From IMG/VR virus record IMGVR_UViG_2843834578_000006: a stretch of DNA of 64,000 nt. One strand, 5' to 3'. The stretch's first letter is position 1. The number at the start of each line of letters is the position of its first letter. Made by a program: the position numbers and the translations under genes. The notes under the pieces were generated by a model. The model was not told the DNA's origin and searched no databases. It worked only from the letters and a program-made list of their open reading frames with translations. Below, in pieces: positions 2,324 through 61,912 of the stretch. This DNA is from an uncultured virus (IMG/VR IMGVR_UViG_2843834578_000006). Taxonomy: Duplodnaviria > Heunggongvirae > Uroviricota > Caudoviricetes.

Positions 2324-3092
2324 ATGAGCGAATTAAGTTTAAAAACGCACTATTCAGTGGCTGAATTGTTAAGTTTTAAGTTATCTAGCCTACCAAGTGC
2401 TCATAAAAATGTGCTTGAGAAAGCAATAAGGGAAAACTGGCAATCTCAAAAACGCAAAGGCAGAGGCGGCGGGGTTGAATATGAATTAATCAGTTTACCC
2501 ACCGAAGTCCAACAGGAAATCCGCACCAAGTTACTCAAACTTCTTCCTGCTGAAATCAGCAAAGGCGAATTGAGTGTAGTGCGACAAAACATTGATTTGG
2601 AGCAGATAACCGATAAACAACTTTCTACGGCAGATGCTCGCATTATGGTGGTGCGGTGGTTCTTGATGCAGGAAGTGCAGTTGGGGCTAAGCCGCACAAA
2701 AACGCTAGACCAAGTCATTGCAGCGGTGGCAAGCAGTGAAATTCCTGCTGAAATTTGCAAAGCGATTATGGCGGGCAATAGTAAAGCCGGTGGAAAGTTA
2801 AAGCTATCTAAACGCACCTTGCATAGTTGGGTGCTGGCGTATGAGGCAGGCGAAAATTCAGCGGAACGGTTAAAACAGATGATACCGCTGAAAACACAAA
2901 AACGTGCCGTGCCCGAGCGGTGTGGTTGGTTGCAAGCCTTTCTGCCGTTTTATCAAACCTTTAGCAATGTGGCACTCACACAGGCTTATGCTCAATTTGC
3001 AATGCAGTATGAGGGCGAAGATTTACCTACAGAGAGCCAAGTTCGGTATGCCTTGAAGCAGTTGCCCGATTATGTGGTGCAACAAGGGCGGA
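2324..3092 (+). pseudogene. Mu transposase A, N-terminal fragment (no DDE core), cut at junction
   Basis: Mu-type HTH (RENWQSQKRKGRGGGVEY); follows ner; sequence switches to tail sheath at 3093. Confidence 0.85.
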
Positions 3093-3606
3093 AATTGCCG
3101 GTGAAGAAGATCCGGCTCGCCCGTTAAATACCCTTGAAGTTAAAGGCTTAACGGTCGTAGATGACTCGCAGAAACCGTTATTTAGCGAAGTAAACCAAGC
3201 GTTATATCACGGTTTAAGCCCGATTGAGGTGGTGGCAAGCCGTGTGCAGATTACCCGTGCGATTACTACATACACCAAAAACGTGACGAATACTGATGAC
3301 CCAAGCTATTTGGATTTAACCACCATTCGTACGCTTGACTATGTGCGTAAGGCAATCCAAACCCGTCAGCGTTTGCGTTTCCCTCGTGCGAAAAACTCCC
3401 ACCGTATTGTGGCAAAAGTACGCTCGGAGATTTTAGATGTGCTTTATCAGCTTGAGGGCGAAGAGGTAATCGAAAATGTGGAAGCGTGGAAAAATCGCTT
3501 ATTAGTGGTGCGTAATCAAGACCCGACTTACTTGGATTTAGAAATCCCTGCGGATGTGGTTAATGGCTTGCACGTTATTCGTAACAAAATTACGTTAATT
3601 TTATAG
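3093..3606 (+). CDS. Mu-like tail sheath, C-terminal part (continues 30979..31894)
   Basis: Frame reads IAGEEDPARPLNTLEVKG...RAITTY...IPADVVNGLH; first 20 bp identical to 31875-31894. Confidence 0.9.
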
Positions 3607-4359: not shown

Positions 4360-4577
4360 CAGAAGCCTTTAAGCAGTACCGACAAGCGGTGATTTTACTC
4401 TCAAAATTTGCAATTACCGCCGAGCAGGTATGGCAAATGCCGTTGCTTGAGGTATTTGCGTGGATTGAGAGCTACTTGGAGAGTGAGGGCGTAAAAACAC
4501 CGCATAGCCCAATGGGTGCGAATAGCGAAGTGAAACGCGAAAGCTATGTCTTTACTCGGTGTGGCAAAATTGAATAG
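4290..4577 (+). CDS. -1 frame extension of tail assembly chaperone (G/GT-like)
   Basis: -1 frame open from the slippery site to 4577, in frame with ORF 4389..4577. Confidence 0.7.
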   Translation, partial: KKAVRKWGEPKRERKPGKSRFGVAEAFKQYRQAVILLSKFAITAEQVWQMPLLEVFAWIESYLESEGVKTPHSPMGANSEVKRESYVFTRCGKIE

Positions 4578-4629: not shown

Positions 4630-4972
4630 ATGGCAAAAAATATGAAAGTGCAACTGGAATTGACGGCAAAAGATACTGCCTCCCCAGTTTTAAACCAAGC
4701 CGCTAAAACCGCCGAAAAAGCCTTTAAAAATACAGAGCGAGCGGCACAAAAAAGTGGCAATGCTCAAACGCAAGCAGCACAGAAAGCAGCGAATGCTACA
4801 GAAAGCTCAAATCGGAAAATAGAACAGAGTTACCGTAATGCCCGCCGAGTGGCTGCCGATGTGAGCCGAGCCCGTGAAACATTAGGTGTTCGGGCGGAAA
4901 ATGCAATCCAACGCGAAATTGAACAAACTCGTGCAGCCTATGACCGCTTAAAACGCTCAGGTGTTGCCTCGC
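4630..4972 (+). CDS. Tape measure protein, N-terminal fragment
   Basis: MAKNMKVQLELTAKD start, Ala/Lys/Gln-rich helix; continues on minus strand from 11582. Confidence 0.85.
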
Positions 4973-5009: not shown

Positions 5010-6070
5010 CACATCAACTCCACAGTTACATCACCCAATCTGAACCAGCCCATTTCACGGTAGGCATCAATCGTTTGGTTTCTGGTTGGCTGTACAATCT
5101 CACGATCTACTACGCCCACTAAATCACTAATTACTGCCTCAATTTGCGAAATAATTAAGGTGTCAGCAGGTTTGAGTGATAAAAAATAATTCTCTAAAGC
5201 GTTTTCGATTTCCGCTTTTACACCATCAAGCGTCGTATCCGTATCAAGTTGCACTTTGATGTTAAAATTGACCCGTTTTTCAACTGGCTTAAGTACATAA
5301 ACCGATTTAGCCGTAACAGGGCGGACTTCATCAATATAAGCTTGAGTTGCTCGCACGATTTCATCACTTGGCACGGTATCACCTGAGGTGATTGCAATAT
5401 CTACCGTACCCTCGCCACGCCGTAATGGATAAACAAACGCAGAGGTTACGCCATCAACGCTTTCTGCCCATTGGCGGAAGTCATTTTTATTCCCGCCTGA
5501 CGGTGGTCGGCGAATCTGCTCTAATAACCGAGCCAGCAATGCCGCATCGCTTTCCACTTCCGTCCCGCCTGTCACATCAGGCAATAACAAGCAATCGCTT
5601 GATACGCCAGCAGGAGCAGCAGTCAGTTGTGCTTTACTTTCAGATTTAACATTGCTTGATGCCCCTGTTGCCATTGAAATCACTCGCACCGTTGCAGAGC
5701 CATCATCACCAATAACGTCCGAGCTTTTGGTTACATAAAAACGCTCGCCAAATTTAACTTGCAAGCCCTCATTGATTACTGAGCCAGCAGTACCAAAAAC
5801 TTTCAACGAACCACTCGCATAGGTCGCATTTTTACGGTAAAGATTTCGCAATTTAGCGTGCATTTCGAGGTATTCGGAGTCTGCCGTATCTGGGAAATAC
5901 TGACGAACAATCCAGTTTTGGTGAGCATACAGCCCCACCACACAGCTTGCCAAAGCGGAGGCACGAACAAAATAATCCGAATCCACCTCAATATCAGCAG
6001 TTGGCTCTAAAGATTGAATATCTCGCAGAATTTCTCTTCTAACATCTTCAAGCGTTGGGATTTGATACAT
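5009..6070 (-). CDS. Baseplate J / Mu gp47 family
   Basis: GGTEVESDAALLARLL..RRPPSGGNKNDFRQWAESVDGV..YPLRRGEGTVD signature. Confidence 0.93.
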   Translation of the reverse strand: MYQIPTLEDVRREILRDIQSLEPTADIEVDSDYFVRASALASCVVGLYAHQNWIVRQYFPDTADSEYLEMHAKLRNLYRKNATYASGSLKVFGTAGSVINEGLQVKFGERFYVTKSSDVIGDDGSATVRVISMATGASSNVKSESKAQLTAAPAGVSSDCLLLPDVTGGTEVESDAALLARLLEQIRRPPSGGNKNDFRQWAESVDGVTSAFVYPLRRGEGTVDIAITSGDTVPSDEIVRATQAYIDEVRPVTAKSVYVLKPVEKRVNFNIKVQLDTDTTLDGVKAEIENALENYFLSLKPADTLIISQIEAVISDLVGVVDREIVQPTRNQTIDAYREMGWFRLGDVTVELM

Positions 6071-6485: not shown

Positions 6486-6551
6486 AATGGCAAGCGGTCT
6501 TTTTCTACAAAAAATTTGCAAAATTAGACCGCTTGTAAATTAGCTTGTAAG

Positions 6552-23622: not shown

Positions 23623-25248
23623 ATGAGCAAAAAGAAGCATAACAAGCAGATTAAACCGAATTTAAACCCGATTAAAAATCAAGAATTGCAGACGGATTTA
23701 GCCGAAATTACCGCTACAGGTCGGGTACTCTCCGACCATCCGAGCAATTTTATTACGCCTGCTAAAATGAAAGCGATTTTTGAAGATACGGAGAATGGCG
23801 ATATTACCGCTCAACACGAATTATTTATGGATATTGAGGAGCGGGACAGCTCTATTTTTGCCAATATCCAAACCCGTAAGCGTGCCGCATTAGGCGTAGA
23901 TTGGGCGATTGTTGCCCCTCGCAATGCCACACCGCAGGAAGAAAAACTGCGTGATGAGGTTGATGAGTTATTTTATCAGCTCGGCAACCTTGAAGATTTG
24001 GTGATGGACTGTATGGACGCTGTGGGACACGGTTTTGCTGCCCTCGAAATTGAATGGGCGTTTAACGGTAAATTGTGGTATCCGAACGCCTTTATCCACC
24101 GTCCTCAATCGTGGTTTAAGTGGGATAAGCACGACAATCTGTTGCTGAAAACCCGACAAAATACCGAAGGTGAGCCATTACGAGAATTTGGCTGGGTGGT
24201 GCATACGCATAAATCCCGCTCCACACAGGCGGCACGCAATAATTTATTCCGCTCGCTGGCTTGGCTGTATATGTTTAAACACTACTCTATCCACGACTTT
24301 GCCGAGTTTTTGGAGCTGTATGGTATGCCTATCCGCATTGGTAAATACGGTGCAGGGGCAACACCAAACGAAAAACAAACGCTTAAACGTGCATTAGCGG
24401 AAATCGGACACAACGCTGCCGGAATTATGCCGGAGTCGATGAGTATTGAGTTGCATAACGCCGCTAATGCAGGCGGTGCAGCCGGCAATAATCCGTTTTT
24501 GCAAATGGTGGATTGGTGTGAGAAGTCTATCGCCCGCTTGATTTTGGGGCAAACCTTAACCAGCGGTGCAGACGGCAAAAGCTCTACCAATGCACTCGGC
24601 AATGTGCATAACGAAGTGCGGCGTGATTTGTTGGTGTCGGACGTGAAACAGCTGGGGCAGACGTTTACCCAACAAATTATTCTGCCGTTTCTGCAAATTA
24701 ATTTTGGCAATATCGACCCAACCCGCATTCCGAGTTTTGAGTTTGATACCAAAGAGCCTGCCGACTTGGCGTTATTTGCCGAGAGCTTGCCGAAATTGGT
24801 GGATATTGGAATGCCGATTCCGGTGCAGTGGGCGATGGATAAACTCGGTATTCCCGAAGCTCAAGAAAATGAAGCGGTGTTAGGGCGTTCTGCCCCGCCA
24901 CAAGCGGTGGGGTTATCCGCAAATTTTCCGCAAAAAATGACCGCTTGCGAATGCGGTTGTGGGGGCAAGGTTCACGCTTTGTCGGCCCAAACCAAAACGG
25001 GCATTAAAGAGCAAGATGCCTTAGATGATTTGGCAGACGAGGCTTTTTCCGTGCCGGATTTTAACGCCCAATTTGACCCCATCACGAAAAAGGCGGTGGC
25101 GGTGGTAATGGCGTGTAGCTCTTATGATGAGGCAGCAGAAAAATTGGCGGCAGCCTACCCTGATTTAGTGAGTGAAGAACACGACCGCTATTTAGCGAAT
25201 GCGTTATTTTTGGCGGATTTATTAGGGGCTGCGAATGCAGAAAGTTAA
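23623..25248 (+). CDS. Portal protein (Mu gp29, DUF935)
   Basis: FLELYGMPIRIGKY..ILGQTLTS..ALGNVHNEVR. Confidence 0.93.
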   Translation: MSKKKHNKQIKPNLNPIKNQELQTDLAEITATGRVLSDHPSNFITPAKMKAIFEDTENGDITAQHELFMDIEERDSSIFANIQTRKRAALGVDWAIVAPRNATPQEEKLRDEVDELFYQLGNLEDLVMDCMDAVGHGFAALEIEWAFNGKLWYPNAFIHRPQSWFKWDKHDNLLLKTRQNTEGEPLREFGWVVHTHKSRSTQAARNNLFRSLAWLYMFKHYSIHDFAEFLELYGMPIRIGKYGAGATPNEKQTLKRALAEIGHNAAGIMPESMSIELHNAANAGGAAGNNPFLQMVDWCEKSIARLILGQTLTSGADGKSSTNALGNVHNEVRRDLLVSDVKQLGQTFTQQIILPFLQINFGNIDPTRIPSFEFDTKEPADLALFAESLPKLVDIGMPIPVQWAMDKLGIPEAQENEAVLGRSAPPQAVGLSANFPQKMTACECGCGGKVHALSAQTKTGIKEQDALDDLADEAFSVPDFNAQFDPITKKAVAVVMACSSYDEAAEKLAAAYPDLVSEEHDRYLANALFLADLLGAANAES

Positions 25249-26534
25249 TTTTGCCATTGGACTAGAGCCTAAGCAGGCGATTGAGTTTTTACGGCAGAAG
25301 AAGTTGCTTGCGAATAAAGTGTTTAAGCAGGAATTATTTGATTCTGCATTGGGGCGAGCCGCCACCATTAGCAAGCTCACTAGCCTTGAAATGACCCGTG
25401 ATATTTATGAGTCGATGGAAAAAGCACGGCGTGAGGGGAAATCCTTTAATGAATGGAAGAAAACGCTTACGGCAGAATTTGAACGGAAAGGCTGGGTGTA
25501 TGGACACGACGATTAGTCGTGGCATTGATGGCAAACTGCTTGCCGACCCGAAAACCGGCGAGCATTTCGGCACGCCTCGCCGCTTGAATACGATTTATCG
25601 TACCAATATGCAACAGGCTTATTCTGCGGCTCGTTATCAGCGGTATATGGATAATGTGGATAATCGCCCTTATTGGCAATATTCGGCGGTAGGCGACCAA
25701 CGCACCCGCCCTGCTCACCAAGCATTACAGGGTAAGATTTATCGTTATGACGATCCGTTTTGGGCGACTTTTTATCCGCCGAACGGCTTTAATTGCCGTT
25801 GTACCGTGATTGCGTTAAGTGAGCGGGATTTAAAGCGTAAAGGGATTGACGAAGTCGGCAGTAGCGAGCCGTTTTTAGTGAAGGCAAAACGACCGAAAGA
25901 TAAGTTAGGCAACCAAGAGGAAACCATTGGCTTTAAATTGGCTGATGGTACGGTGCGATTGGCTGATAAAGGTTTTGATTATAATGTGGGGCGTTTAACC
26001 TATAAGCCGAATTTGGATTTATACCCTGAAAAGCTGGCTTACCAATTTACCAAAGCAGAAATGAGCGGTGGTGAATTTAAGCAGGCGTTTAACAAGTTAG
26101 AAGAGGCTGTGGCACTTGCCAAAGATGGGGCGAAAAAACTCTCGCCTGATGAGATGGTTAAAGTGCGAAATGCCCTTAATCAAAACTTTAAATTTGCTGC
26201 TGGTCGGTTAAGTGAGGAAACACAACGCTTAATCGACAGTAAAGTCGGCACGGTATGGCTTTCGGATGACACACTGATTAAGCAGTTTTATAGCCGTGAG
26301 GGGCAGGATTTTGGGTTTGATGTGTATGCAAATATTCCTGATGTAATTTTTCAGCCTAATCATATTTTGCAAGAAGGCAAAAATTTCAGCTTTATACGAA
26401 ACTTTGAGCATTATCGTATTCTTGTTGTGGTGAAATACTTAGAAGAGTTTGGTGAATTATTTCTGGTATCAACAAGGGAGATTGGACAAAAAGAATTGGA
26501 TAAGCTGCTGTTGAAAAATACGGTTATTAGGTAA
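25235..26534 (+). pseudogene. Mu gpF/gp30 minor head protein with C-terminal BECR-like nuclease extension, frameshifted near 25510
   Basis: RRLNTIYRTN..D.RTRP.H..YPPNGFNCRC MuF motif; GHD|ISRGIDG frame break. Confidence 0.82.
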
Positions 26535-26635
26535 GGCTCCCGGTCACTTACACACGCTCTCGGTCATTTGAGCAGGACTTGCCATCTCAAATAGGCTGCG
26601 GCAGGGAGATTATCACCGCTTTTCTAATAACCGTA
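26519..26635 (+). ncRNA. Candidate structured RNA element after the MuF-nuclease gene
   Basis: 12-bp enclosing inverted repeat, two internal hairpins, loop-to-3' pairing CTCCC/GGGAG. Confidence 0.45.
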
Positions 26636-26684
26636 AAAGGAATATACCCCTGTTTATTTTAAAAATCAACTTGCAAGGTTAAAA

Positions 26685-27101
26685 ATGATTGAAATCCAAA
26701 TCCACGGCATTGATGAAATTATTGCCACGCTTAACCGTATTGCTGCTAAAACGGCAAATAAAACAGACTTGATGCGGAATATTGCCGGCAAAATGGAATC
26801 GGCGGTACTGACCAATTTTGATGAGGGCGGTCGCCCGAAATGGCTGGGTATAAAACATCGGCAAGGCACGCCGTTAGTTGATACGGAAAATTTAATGGGC
26901 AGCATTACTGCTGATTATAATAATGATTCGGCGATTGTTGGCACAAATGAGCCTTATGCTGCTATTCATCAATTCGGTGGTATGGCTGGGCGTGGGCGTA
27001 AAGTAAAAATTGAAGCCCGACCTTTTTTACAATTAACCTCGCAAGACAGGCAAGATATTTTGGACGATGTGCAAGCCTACTGGCAAAAACTGCTGGATTA
27101 A
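26685..27101 (+). CDS. Virion morphogenesis protein (Mu gpG)
   Basis: VGTNEPYAAIHQFGG..ARPFL. Confidence 0.92.
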   Translation: MIEIQIHGIDEIIATLNRIAAKTANKTDLMRNIAGKMESAVLTNFDEGGRPKWLGIKHRQGTPLVDTENLMGSITADYNNDSAIVGTNEPYAAIHQFGGMAGRGRKVKIEARPFLQLTSQDRQDILDDVQAYWQKLLD

Positions 27102-27281
27102 GCGATAAGATAATCGCCACAGATAGCCCCTAAATCGCTCTCTGTGGCGTTTTTGTTTTTTTTATGGTGATTTATCATTCCAACTTTTTTAAAATTTTTT
27201 AAAACGGATTTAAAGCGTTTTAAAATGGGTTACATTCCTCGCTGAATACAAGCGGTTGTTTTTTTCTGAAAATTTGCAACT

Positions 27282-27305
27282 TGTGGAAGTTGCTCCCCGT
27301 TACTC
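27282..27305 (+). promoter_or_regulatory. Putative late promoter motif (head operon)
   Basis: TGTGGAAGttgCTCCCCGTTACTC. Confidence 0.65.
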
Positions 27306-60624: not shown

Positions 60625-61912
60625 AATAACTCTTTCCAGTTCTACTTGTGCATCCGCATTTTGAGCGACATTTGGCTCACGCATACCAGCTAAGACTGCT
60701 CGCCGAGCCAGGAGCATTTTTTCCATTATCTTACTAGTCGCAATTTCTGCAGATAAGCGTTGGCTTAATACCTCAACATCAGGATCATCTCGAAGACTCT
60801 CAATAAGCCCTCTTGTTACTGGTACAGTAGTTGAACTCAAATCAGCTAACAATTCAGCCTTAGGCACATCCATATTCAGTACATTCTCTAATTTGACAAT
60901 AGTACGAACATGTTCTTCCTCAATTTCCGGACTCAAGCCTACACCGGCTTTTGAGCTGGTTTTAGTGCCACAATCCTCTTTACAAGTCGAAATAGATTGT
61001 TCACCAATAATCTTAGTTAAAAAATCGGCTGCTGTTTGTGGATTATCCCAAGTTTGGCAAAGATTCCCATCACAGCTTGAACCTGAAATTGTACTGGTAT
61101 CTAAGGCATTACGTTTGTTCAGTAAATTAAACCCAGCTTTGACAACATCGCCAACAACATTGATAGCTTCTTGGTTTTCCCCACCTTTTTTCTGACCTCC
61201 TATCCAAACTCGCCCATCTTTCCCTTTTTTATCTTCCAGGTCTTTTTGAGCTTGTTTTGCATCAGGTTGAGAGGAGGTAATTTGCTTATAGCTTTCTAAA
61301 TCAGCTGCTTGCCCCCATTTTCCTCCCAGTGTATGATCTGCTAAAACTTTGGACATTTCTTCACAACTGGTTTTAAGACGGTTGAAATCCAGCTTACCTT
61401 GGTACATACCATTTGTGAGTAAATCGTAGAGTTGAGGGTTGGCCCGTTGCAATACCATTGCAGGCATACTTGCAACCGCACCTTTCGCTGAATCAATGAC
61501 ATTCCCCATTAAATCTTTAAAGCCGTCTTTGAGACCGTTTAAATCATTTTTAATGGTCGTTTTAATATCAAAATTACCACTCANTGACATTCCCCATTAA
61601 ATCTTTAAAGCCGTCTTTGAGACCGTTTAAATCATTTTTAATGGTCGTTTTAATATCAAAATTACCACAGGTTAAATTCGCTTTCCAACCAATTCCTAAA
61701 TCAACAACTTTGGTATTACCACGACTAGGTGGAGCCATATAACCCATTCCACCGCCGATTTGGTAAAAAACACGGTCTGAAATAATCGAATCCGACTTAC
61801 TAAATTCCAGTTTATCCGTAATCGAATCGGCATAAGATAGTCCTGATACACTTGATAATAATGCTGTCGTGATCCGTAAGTGGGATTTTTTGAAGTTAAA
61901 GTGAGATTTCAT
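60625..61912 (-). pseudogene. ICE protein (TIGR03755-like), 3'-truncated and broken by an 88-bp duplication with an N
   Basis: YQIGGG..CGNFDIKTT..QRANPQLYDLL. Confidence 0.82.

Follow-up and report, generated by a model that had tools for sequence, protein, structure and literature searches.

A stretch of 64,000 nucleotides from an uncultured virus of the class Caudoviricetes (IMG/VR record IMGVR_UViG_2843834578_000006), referred to here over its full length as the window, was analyzed at the junction between genes F and G of a Mu-like prophage, where a compact structured element lies at the end of F. Gene F (25235..26534, plus strand) was assigned MuF and PBECR3 domains with Pfam (PF04233, E-value 1e-28, and PF18812, 47 bits against a cut-off of 30, respectively), and gene G (26685..27101, plus strand) was assigned to virion morphogenesis (PF05069). 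A PBECR-like C-terminus of F and a structural gene G next to it had both been proposed in a preliminary description of this DNA and were borne out by these matches and by the ribonuclease (RNase) fold of PBECR3. In the window, F is split into frames of 93 and 378 amino acids (aa) by a 5-base gap near 25508 compared with the phage record KP137440 and genome G001; the prophage copy may be defective, or the gap may be an assembly error. The region 26100-26700 is matched at 100% by Mannheimia phage vB_MhM_3927AP2. An immunity open reading frame (ORF) behind F had been reported as missing, and indeed no conserved ORF was found between F and G; the element itself holds only a 27-aa ORF starting with TTG, the F-G gaps at other loci are too short for a conserved ORF, and the frames past the F stop codon showed no conservation among homologues.

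The element is bounded by a perfect 12-bp inverted repeat, TACGGTTATTAG at 26519-26530 with its exact complement at 26624-26635. Inside it, GTAAG (26531-26535) pairs with CTTAC (26547-26551), the loop of this hairpin (CTCCC, 26537-26541) is complementary to GGGAG (26604-26608) in a pseudoknot, and a second hairpin is formed by ATTTGAG (26566-26572) with CTCAAAT (26586-26592); the F stop codon (26532-26534) lies within the element. These repeats, hairpins and the loop-loop pseudoknot had been described before and were confirmed in the sequence. A near-direct repeat described with them (GCTCCCGGTCA at 26536 and GCTCTCGGTCA at 26556) is also present, but was not kept in homologues and was not counted as a feature. 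With a fourth helix, GCGG (26598-26601) with CCGC (26616-26619), the fold becomes a four-way cloverleaf. Apart from its two copies in the element, the 12-mer has only one further site in the 64 kb of the window, with a single mismatch; 0.23 occurrences are expected by chance, and three were reached in none of 100 shuffles. Folding z-scores were -3.89 (plus strand) and -2.87 (minus strand), and none of 200 shuffles was as stable on either strand. Covariance model R1 detected one copy in the window (26523-26631, minus strand, 71 bits).

A search of viral contigs with F yielded 79 loci; the F stop codon could be placed in 76 of them, and the other three run off the contig. A homologous element at the F stop codon was found by script at 74 loci, and the covariance model added one more (L055), in which F is frameshifted, giving 75 of 76; the sole locus without the element is L097. 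The 74 elements collapse to 43 distinct sequences, which were aligned with MAFFT blind to structure and scored for Watson-Crick cells by a fixed-position rule. Such cells numbered 327 of 344 in the 8-bp core of the outer stem (P1), 212 of 215 in the 5-bp hairpin, 170 of 172 in the 4-bp helix and 210 of 215 in the loop-loop, or kissing, helix. The kissing strands appeared as CTCGA/TCGAG (21 sequences), CTCCC/GGGAG (12) and CTCGG/CCGAG (4), and more rarely as CTCGG/CCAAG (2), CTGCA/GGCAG (2), CTCCC/GGAAG (1) and CTGCC/GGCAG (1). When the 43 elements were aligned in the RNA sense, 98.2% of 925 cells were paired and 18 of 22 pairs had changed on both sides; in slid controls, with the partner moved by 1-3 columns, 29-40% were paired. 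The observed pair counts were reached by none of 500 shuffles in four of five measures and by 38 of 500 in the fifth. Independently, RNAalifold predicted P1 and the D-like and T-like arms described below, with 15 of 16 pairs compensatory. Covariation supports all helices including the pseudoknot, and the proposal of a pseudoknotted RNA element was borne out: the structured element is real and conserved. An extension of the second hairpin on the plus strand through GGUC/GGCU wobbles was also considered, and is not retained in homologues.

Watson-Crick covariation is blind to the strand and wobble pairs are not, so the asymmetry of wobbles was used to assign the strand. Among the non-Watson-Crick pairs of the 43 elements, one was a G.U in the plus sense and 13 (A.C or C.A) were wobbles in the minus sense, three of them in the kiss. 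In a larger set of 84 distinct units (the 43 and 41 from genomes), the nested helices contained 33 G.U against 7 A.C in the minus sense, or 23 against 3 by hand count after removal of five visibly misaligned or weak rows; the kiss columns of the 41 added rows are misaligned and were excluded from the wobble count. By consensus scan, the minus strand of the window carries a -35 hexamer TTGATT (26664..26669) and a -10 hexamer TATATT (26641..26646) separated by 17 nucleotides (nt), ending 5 nt ahead of the outer stem and predicting an RNA start at ~26635. The position of this promoter is conserved in homologues: a match of at least 9 of 12 bases at 3-16 nt before the P1 core was present in 54 of 84 units compared with 1 of 84 in the opposite sense, and with a threshold of at least 8 of 12 the numbers were 65 and 8. 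It is retained even where it overlaps the G start codon, and second members of tandem dimers are among the units that had no match. Past P1 in the minus sense, at least 8 T in 16 nt were found in 40 of 84 units, compared with 3 of 84 in the opposite sense; the tract in the window consists of five (26514..26518), directly past P1, and is the likely 3' end or termination site. Wherever F lay near a hit of the covariance model, the hit was antisense to it (51 of 51). From the wobble asymmetry, the conserved sigma-70 promoter and the U-tract, we infer a minus-strand RNA of ~120 nt as the functional product, transcribed from its own promoter (26669-26641) and ending at 26518-26514.

Read in this sense, the predicted RNA opens with the 5' strand of P1, an acceptor-like closing stem (26624..26635), which is 12 bp long in the window and 7-14 bp across the family and has compensatory changes in all 8 core pairs. 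An AAAA linker (26620..26623; kept in classes I and II, with only 2 nt in class III, as defined below) leads to the D-like arm (26598..26619), in which a 4-bp helix (26616-26619/26598-26601; 4 of 4 pairs covarying, 99.4% of cells paired) closes a 14-nt loop. This loop carries UGA(UA)AUC and the first kissing strand, CUCCC in the window (26604..26608), whose partner is 26537-26541 and in which 3 of 5 pairs covary. Arm B (26556..26597) follows, and after a near-invariant GUGU linker (26552..26555) comes the T-like arm (26531..26551), a 5-bp helix (26547-26551/26531-26535; 3 of 5 pairs covarying, 98.6% of cells paired) with an 11-nt loop containing the second kissing strand; many of these loops read GGUUCGAGCC-like. 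The T-like arm abuts directly on the 3' strand of P1 (26519..26530), which overlaps the last four sense codons of F.

Arm B falls into three classes across the family. In class I, to which the element in the window belongs, it is a long hairpin (26586-26592/26566-26572) with conserved junction strands; the tip is dispensable, and some relatives have a short tetraloop hairpin instead. In class II it is a short stem with the conserved loop UGAAAUAG, which is kept across units with differing stems. Three near-identical class II elements (L023, L024 and L026) differ almost only at two positions of this loop, giving in the RNA sense the triplets GUA, GAA and GCA preceded by U or C. Such variation could be drift or could mark a specificity site resembling an anticodon loop.

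The covariance model matched 47 of 151 Pasteurellaceae genomes (64 matches) and none of 150 genomes that each represented a different further family of the class. In the family of Bergeriella denitrificans (G303), which we take to be Neisseriaceae, it matched 17 of 121 genomes. A contig scan with an exact 17-mer gave at least 120 stretches. Of the 80 listed, eight were put through the model, with a strong score for four, a marginal match for one and no match for three; from their titles, the other 72 look like chance matches. Matches were also found in Haemophilus phage SuMu, Haemophilus influenzae M10489, Rodentibacter trehalosifermentans and Bisgaard Taxon 45. In SuMu (L154), the 570-base F-G gap contains one RNA unit (2874-2969, 88.7 bits) and then an annotated hypothetical ORF of 66 aa (3022-3222), so other cargo can occupy the F-G spot.

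Prophages carry one to six copies, most loci being single units. The largest array (G045) has six units between G and F, with TTGACA-17-TATATT promoters ahead of single units or dimers, and Bergeriella has four units in a row. Members of a dimer in the six-unit array are only 4-7 nt apart, a spacing that would, by analogy with transfer RNA (tRNA), imply processing from a precursor. Thirteen of the 64 tabulated Pasteurellaceae hits, at 11 loci, had no F, G or portal gene in the fetched flanks; the neighbours of such stand-alone copies were housekeeping genes, for example those for 5S ribosomal RNA (rRNA) and inositol monophosphatase, for an AAA_2-family ATPase, or for AcrB with a two-component system, and the copies have promoters of their own when inspected by eye. 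In the second family, 5 of 12 loci lacked F and G by tblastn, and four of these five represent one chromosomal locus. At this locus, shared by four genomes, the RNA and an upstream sequence at the promoter position are present, neither F nor G was detected, and the flanks show by eye short pieces resembling the 3' end of F and the 5' end of G; it is read as an RNA gene that appears to have been retained past prophage decay. The four copies (L287, L288, L293 and L294) lie among repeated elements, which presumably are Correia-type repeats and uptake sequences from their appearance, and are flanked by a 370-aa ORF without a Pfam match. Elsewhere (L129), a chromosomal tandem pair has near-identical terminator-like flanks of ~50 bases at 4741-4790 and 5078-5127, which suggests insertion by recombination at such repeats.

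The linkage of the RNA to PBECR3 was then counted over the 151 Pasteurellaceae genomes. PBECR3 matches above the Pfam cut-off numbered 35, in 33 genomes, and in 34 of the 35 an RNA hit lies within ~40 nt of the end of the domain. The sole exception is the second MuF-PBECR3 gene of one genome (G079), at which no RNA was hit even with filters off. This gene (L295, 933-2243) has an in-frame stop codon and, with 82.7 bits, the top-scoring PBECR3 match of all those sampled, and its domain carries a His and a 10-residue insert that are both missing from the RNA-linked domains. MuF domains were found in 78 of the 151 genomes; 39 genomes with MuF have neither PBECR3 nor the RNA, and within Pasteurellaceae the element tracks the PBECR3 type of MuF gene. 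The RNA without a PBECR3 match was found in 13 genomes, and it was not found in D108 (with MuF_C), BcepMu or Pasteurella phage AFS-2018a, all without PBECR3. There are strong indications that the RNA family travels with Mu-like prophages of the MuF-PBECR3 lineage. Within this one phage lineage the link is strong, but it is neither universal nor exclusive. When the class of arm B was compared by eye with the PBECR3 subtype, the two were mixed and the comparison is confounded by linkage, and no claim was drawn.

The AlphaFold2 model of PBECR3 had a mean predicted local distance difference test score (pLDDT) of 86.7. Its nearest solved folds were RelE-family toxins, the tRNase domain of colicin D and the CdiA-CT tRNases, with modest Z-scores of 5.4-6.6, and Foldseek gave no match to the PDB at an E-value of 0.001 or less; these fold neighbours are only consistent with the Pfam assignment of the model. 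The preliminary description had treated the PBECR domain as a variable add-on toxin; according to Iyer et al. 2017 (PMC5512222), it is instead the ordinary C-terminus of the Mu F family, roles as an RNase or in RNA binding are proposed for it, and in one PBECR family Arg replaces the catalytic His. A recent preprint (bioRxiv 10.64898/2026.08.28.747851) describes tRNAs as the main targets of colicin-like BECR RNases.

Taken together, the element very likely belongs to a family of minus-strand, independently transcribed, tRNA-shaped RNAs. As an overall explanation, we consider it moderately probable that the RNA of this gene acts in trans on a protein that recognizes tRNA-like RNA, for which PBECR3 is the best candidate. 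Action in trans is suggested by conservation of the kiss, by the conserved loop of one class, and by stand-alone copies with no F or G nearby. PBECR3 stands out among possible partners because the RNA has a fixed position at the coding end of the domain, because colicin-like BECR RNases prefer tRNA, because an immunity ORF is absent, and because arrays and orphan copies recall immunity-gene arrays; even so, the RNase-fold domain itself can be named as the partner only tentatively. Through its conserved three-dimensional shape, the RNA would act as a tRNA mimic on a protein recognizing tRNA-like RNA. With PBECR3 as the partner, it would be a pseudo-substrate or an immunity RNA in lysogens; alternatively, PBECR3 would bind it as ligand or cargo. 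A more specific form of this proposal seems rather unlikely to us, namely that the RNAs are a constitutive RNA immunity or partner of a virion-delivered BECR RNase-fold domain, serving as tRNA-mimic pseudo-substrates for resident or injected PBECR3. Lysogens and RNA-only hosts would then express the RNA constitutively, and it would bind the PBECR3 of the resident or of a superinfecting relative.

Several observations weigh against the overall explanation. No transcript was observed: RNA sequencing contigs from three runs cover the region but show neither strand nor ends, those of one run leave a gap at 26442-26559 where the 3' part is predicted, and a run of raw reads had 0 reads on the stretch and hence is no test of the transcript. 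The promoter match in the window is by itself no better than in shuffles (2 found, 1.7 expected), and the case for the promoter is made by its conserved position in the compared sequences. The RNA is not a tRNA by ARAGORN or Rfam. PBECR3-MuF genes without it exist (L097, G242 and the second locus of G079). A single F gene can have as many as six units beside it, and the RNA is still present at loci that have lost F, so that toxin and antitoxin are not as a rule paired one to one. Simple linkage, by shared ancestry inside a single phage lineage, may account for the association. At the column of the His of G242, where the G079 domain without an RNA also has His, none of the 43 RNA-linked PBECR3 domains has His (E in 20, D in 8, and others), and Arg stands just before that column in 43 of 45 PBECR3 domains; the RNA-linked domains may, from their residues, be catalytically altered, so that there may be no toxin to neutralize.

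In one of the RNA sequencing runs (X5), a contig from 26560 to 27111, inside the element to just past G, has a depth of 58, and the contig on the F side has a depth of 11 and ends at 26441. The jump in depth could mark a processing site, or sense reads may have been merged with antisense reads.

The preliminary description had taken the element as an antitoxin, substrate or autoregulatory element for the C-terminal domain. In the corresponding plus-strand reading, it lies in the 3' end of the F messenger RNA (mRNA) and acts in cis in one of these roles, or serves processing or stability between F and G. A plus-strand structure of this kind would agree with the F stop codon inside the element at many loci, with a plus strand that folds equally well (z -3.89) and with covariation that cannot separate the strands, and the contig running from 26560 through G at ~5x the depth of the F contig could reflect a processing site. 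It is nevertheless very unlikely, since the wobbles (1 against 13, then 7 against 33) favour the minus sense, the promoter and U-tract signals occur on the minus-sense side only, every F-linked copy is antisense to F, and neither the stand-alone copies without F or G nor the arrays of up to six units with promoters of their own have an upstream ORF to serve. We regard as close to negligible the chance that the element works at the level of DNA, as a miniature inverted-repeat transposable element, a recombination site or a cruciform. The perfect 12-bp terminal inverted repeat, the dispersed chromosomal copies at unrelated sites and the one tandem pair flanked by a duplicated ~50-bp terminator would fit it; against this, the arm sequences covary and are not conserved, as ends recognized by a transposase would be, the 64-kb window has one copy only, and the cloverleaf with its covarying kiss, the strand-asymmetric wobbles and the positioned promoter are signatures of RNA.

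Two further explanations accept a minus-strand RNA and differ from the trans-acting partner of PBECR3 in what it does. In the one, to which we assign a low probability, the RNA and its convergent promoter damp the late genes in cis, either through transcriptional interference or through base pairing to the F-G junction in the late mRNA of the same prophage or of a superinfecting relative, and the fold provides only stability and a kissing initiation. The antisense orientation in 51 of 51 linked copies, the overlap of the promoter with the G start or ribosome-binding site (RBS) region at many loci, full complementarity to the late transcript covering the F stop codon, and the fast sequence change of P1 and the kiss with diverse arrays, as in escape from or broadening of targeting, all agree with such a role. 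Yet the overlap is limited to the last 0-16 nt of F, the predicted start at ~26635 in the window misses the G RBS (G ATG at 26685), antisense action needs neither an intramolecular kiss nor a conserved four-way junction, stand-alone copies have no target in cis, and the arm B loop of class II, conserved across differing stems, suggests a ligand in trans. The other explanation makes the RNA a tRNA-shaped decoy or ligand of a different tRNA-binding factor, such as a host anticodon nuclease or other defence RNase, RNase P or a modification enzyme, and a prophage moron unrelated to PBECR3; this too we judge improbable, though not markedly so. The helix order and lengths, the RNA's own promoter, the dimers 4-7 nt apart implying tRNA-like processing, the retention of the RNA past prophage decay and at housekeeping loci, and the three PBECR3 genes without the RNA would all be explained. 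Its position in prophages is, however, fixed directly past the end of the PBECR3 coding region (34 of 35), the 39 genomes with other MuF types gave no RNA hit, and the stand-alone copies have unrelated housekeeping genes as neighbours, among which no candidate partner was seen.

Two other features of the window were recorded. Words of ACAAGCGGT are repeated at 43-74, 4382-4413, 6490-6538, 27248-27305 and other places, often as inverted pairs behind genes, one such pair lying in the gap between G and I (27248-27305); we take them to be uptake signal sequences that double as terminators. At 61493-61668, an 88-base unit occurs twice head-to-tail with 99% identity and with an N in the second copy, and may have arisen by recent duplication or as an artefact of assembly.

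Elements of classes I-III had no match among the 4227 families of Rfam 15 at E-values up to 10, the tRNA and transfer-messenger RNA (tmRNA) models included. Scans at Rfam gathering scores gave no hit in the whole window and none on the element in the chromosomal copies, other output of the Rfam scans being noise or unrelated rRNA and CRISPR (clustered regularly interspaced short palindromic repeats) hits, and ARAGORN found no tRNA or tmRNA gene in the window. Ribozyme, attC and read-through readings were set aside, as defining motifs were not seen by eye, Rfam gave none, and the frames after the stop codon are unconserved. The small RNA NMnc0031 of N. meningitidis has a different sequence, and the motif is absent from the supplement of the paper reporting it. 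A full-text literature search, exact motifs included, returned no description of the RNA, with subscription journals and most supplements outside its coverage; the family is apparently undescribed. It combines strong covariation, including that of a tertiary kiss, with a place outside all Rfam families, and it sits in genera of well-studied pathogens (Mannheimia, Haemophilus, Rodentibacter and Bergeriella). Its antisense placement inside a late operon, its expansion into arrays and its stand-alone occurrence where F and G are undetectable are unusual, and it offers a concrete candidate ligand for the uncharacterized PBECR3 domain of Mu F-type head proteins. Should the RNA turn out to mimic tRNA and to block or load a phage RNase, a task so far known only for proteins would have a solution in RNA, and if the immunity proposal is true, the diverse arrays and orphan copies would be the RNA counterpart of the orphan immunity-gene arrays of polymorphic toxins.

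Among known RNAs, tRNA, the tRNA-like domain of tmRNA, the 3' tRNA-like structures of plant viruses and YrlA are alike in helix order and in the contact between the first and last loops. The RNA has this order of a closing stem, a short linker, a 4-bp arm, a central arm, a 4-nt linker and a stacked 5-bp arm, and its dimeric units likewise imply precursor processing as in tRNA-like systems. Cloverleaf order and lengths agree with tRNA, whereas the loop contact is a covarying 5-bp kiss and not that of G18/G19 with psi55/C56, P1 is 7-14 bp and is followed by U-rich sequence instead of a 7-bp acceptor with discriminator and CCA, and arm B, which is either a 9-10-nt loop on a stem of 3-4 bp or a long hairpin, stands in place of an anticodon arm of 5 bp and a 7-nt loop. 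By these comparisons of sequence and predicted fold, the RNA is tRNA-shaped and not a tRNA. Structured small RNAs are also encoded by other phages, including P4 CI, P1/P7 C4 and the stable RNAs C and D of T4, some of which are cut by tRNA-processing enzymes; their genomic position and fold differ from those found here, and similarity in sequence or model is lacking, as Rfam, which includes C4, gave no hit on the element.

ToxI-type antitoxins are repeats of ~36-45 nt that lie upstream of, and are co-transcribed with, the ToxN-type toxin that processes them. Such type III toxin-antitoxin systems resemble the present locus in having a pseudoknotted RNA beside an RNase-fold protein and tandem copies at some loci. 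Here, however, the units are diverse and 90-125 nt long, lie downstream on the opposite strand with promoters of their own in place of a short upstream repeat array, and adjoin the BECR-fold domain of a head protein. With MuF toxins that have an immunity gene, F shares the fusion of MuF to a C-terminal toxin or RNase-fold domain; the downstream immunity ORF of such systems was not found behind F. The immunity genes of BECR and other polymorphic toxins (colicin D/ImmD, CdiA-CT/CdiI and MuF pairs) differ from the RNA gene in that its product is an RNA with no conserved ORF and that some PBECR3 genes lack it; the same position past the end of the RNase domain and a constitutive-looking promoter are shared, and the arrays and orphan copies of the RNA resemble orphan immunity arrays.

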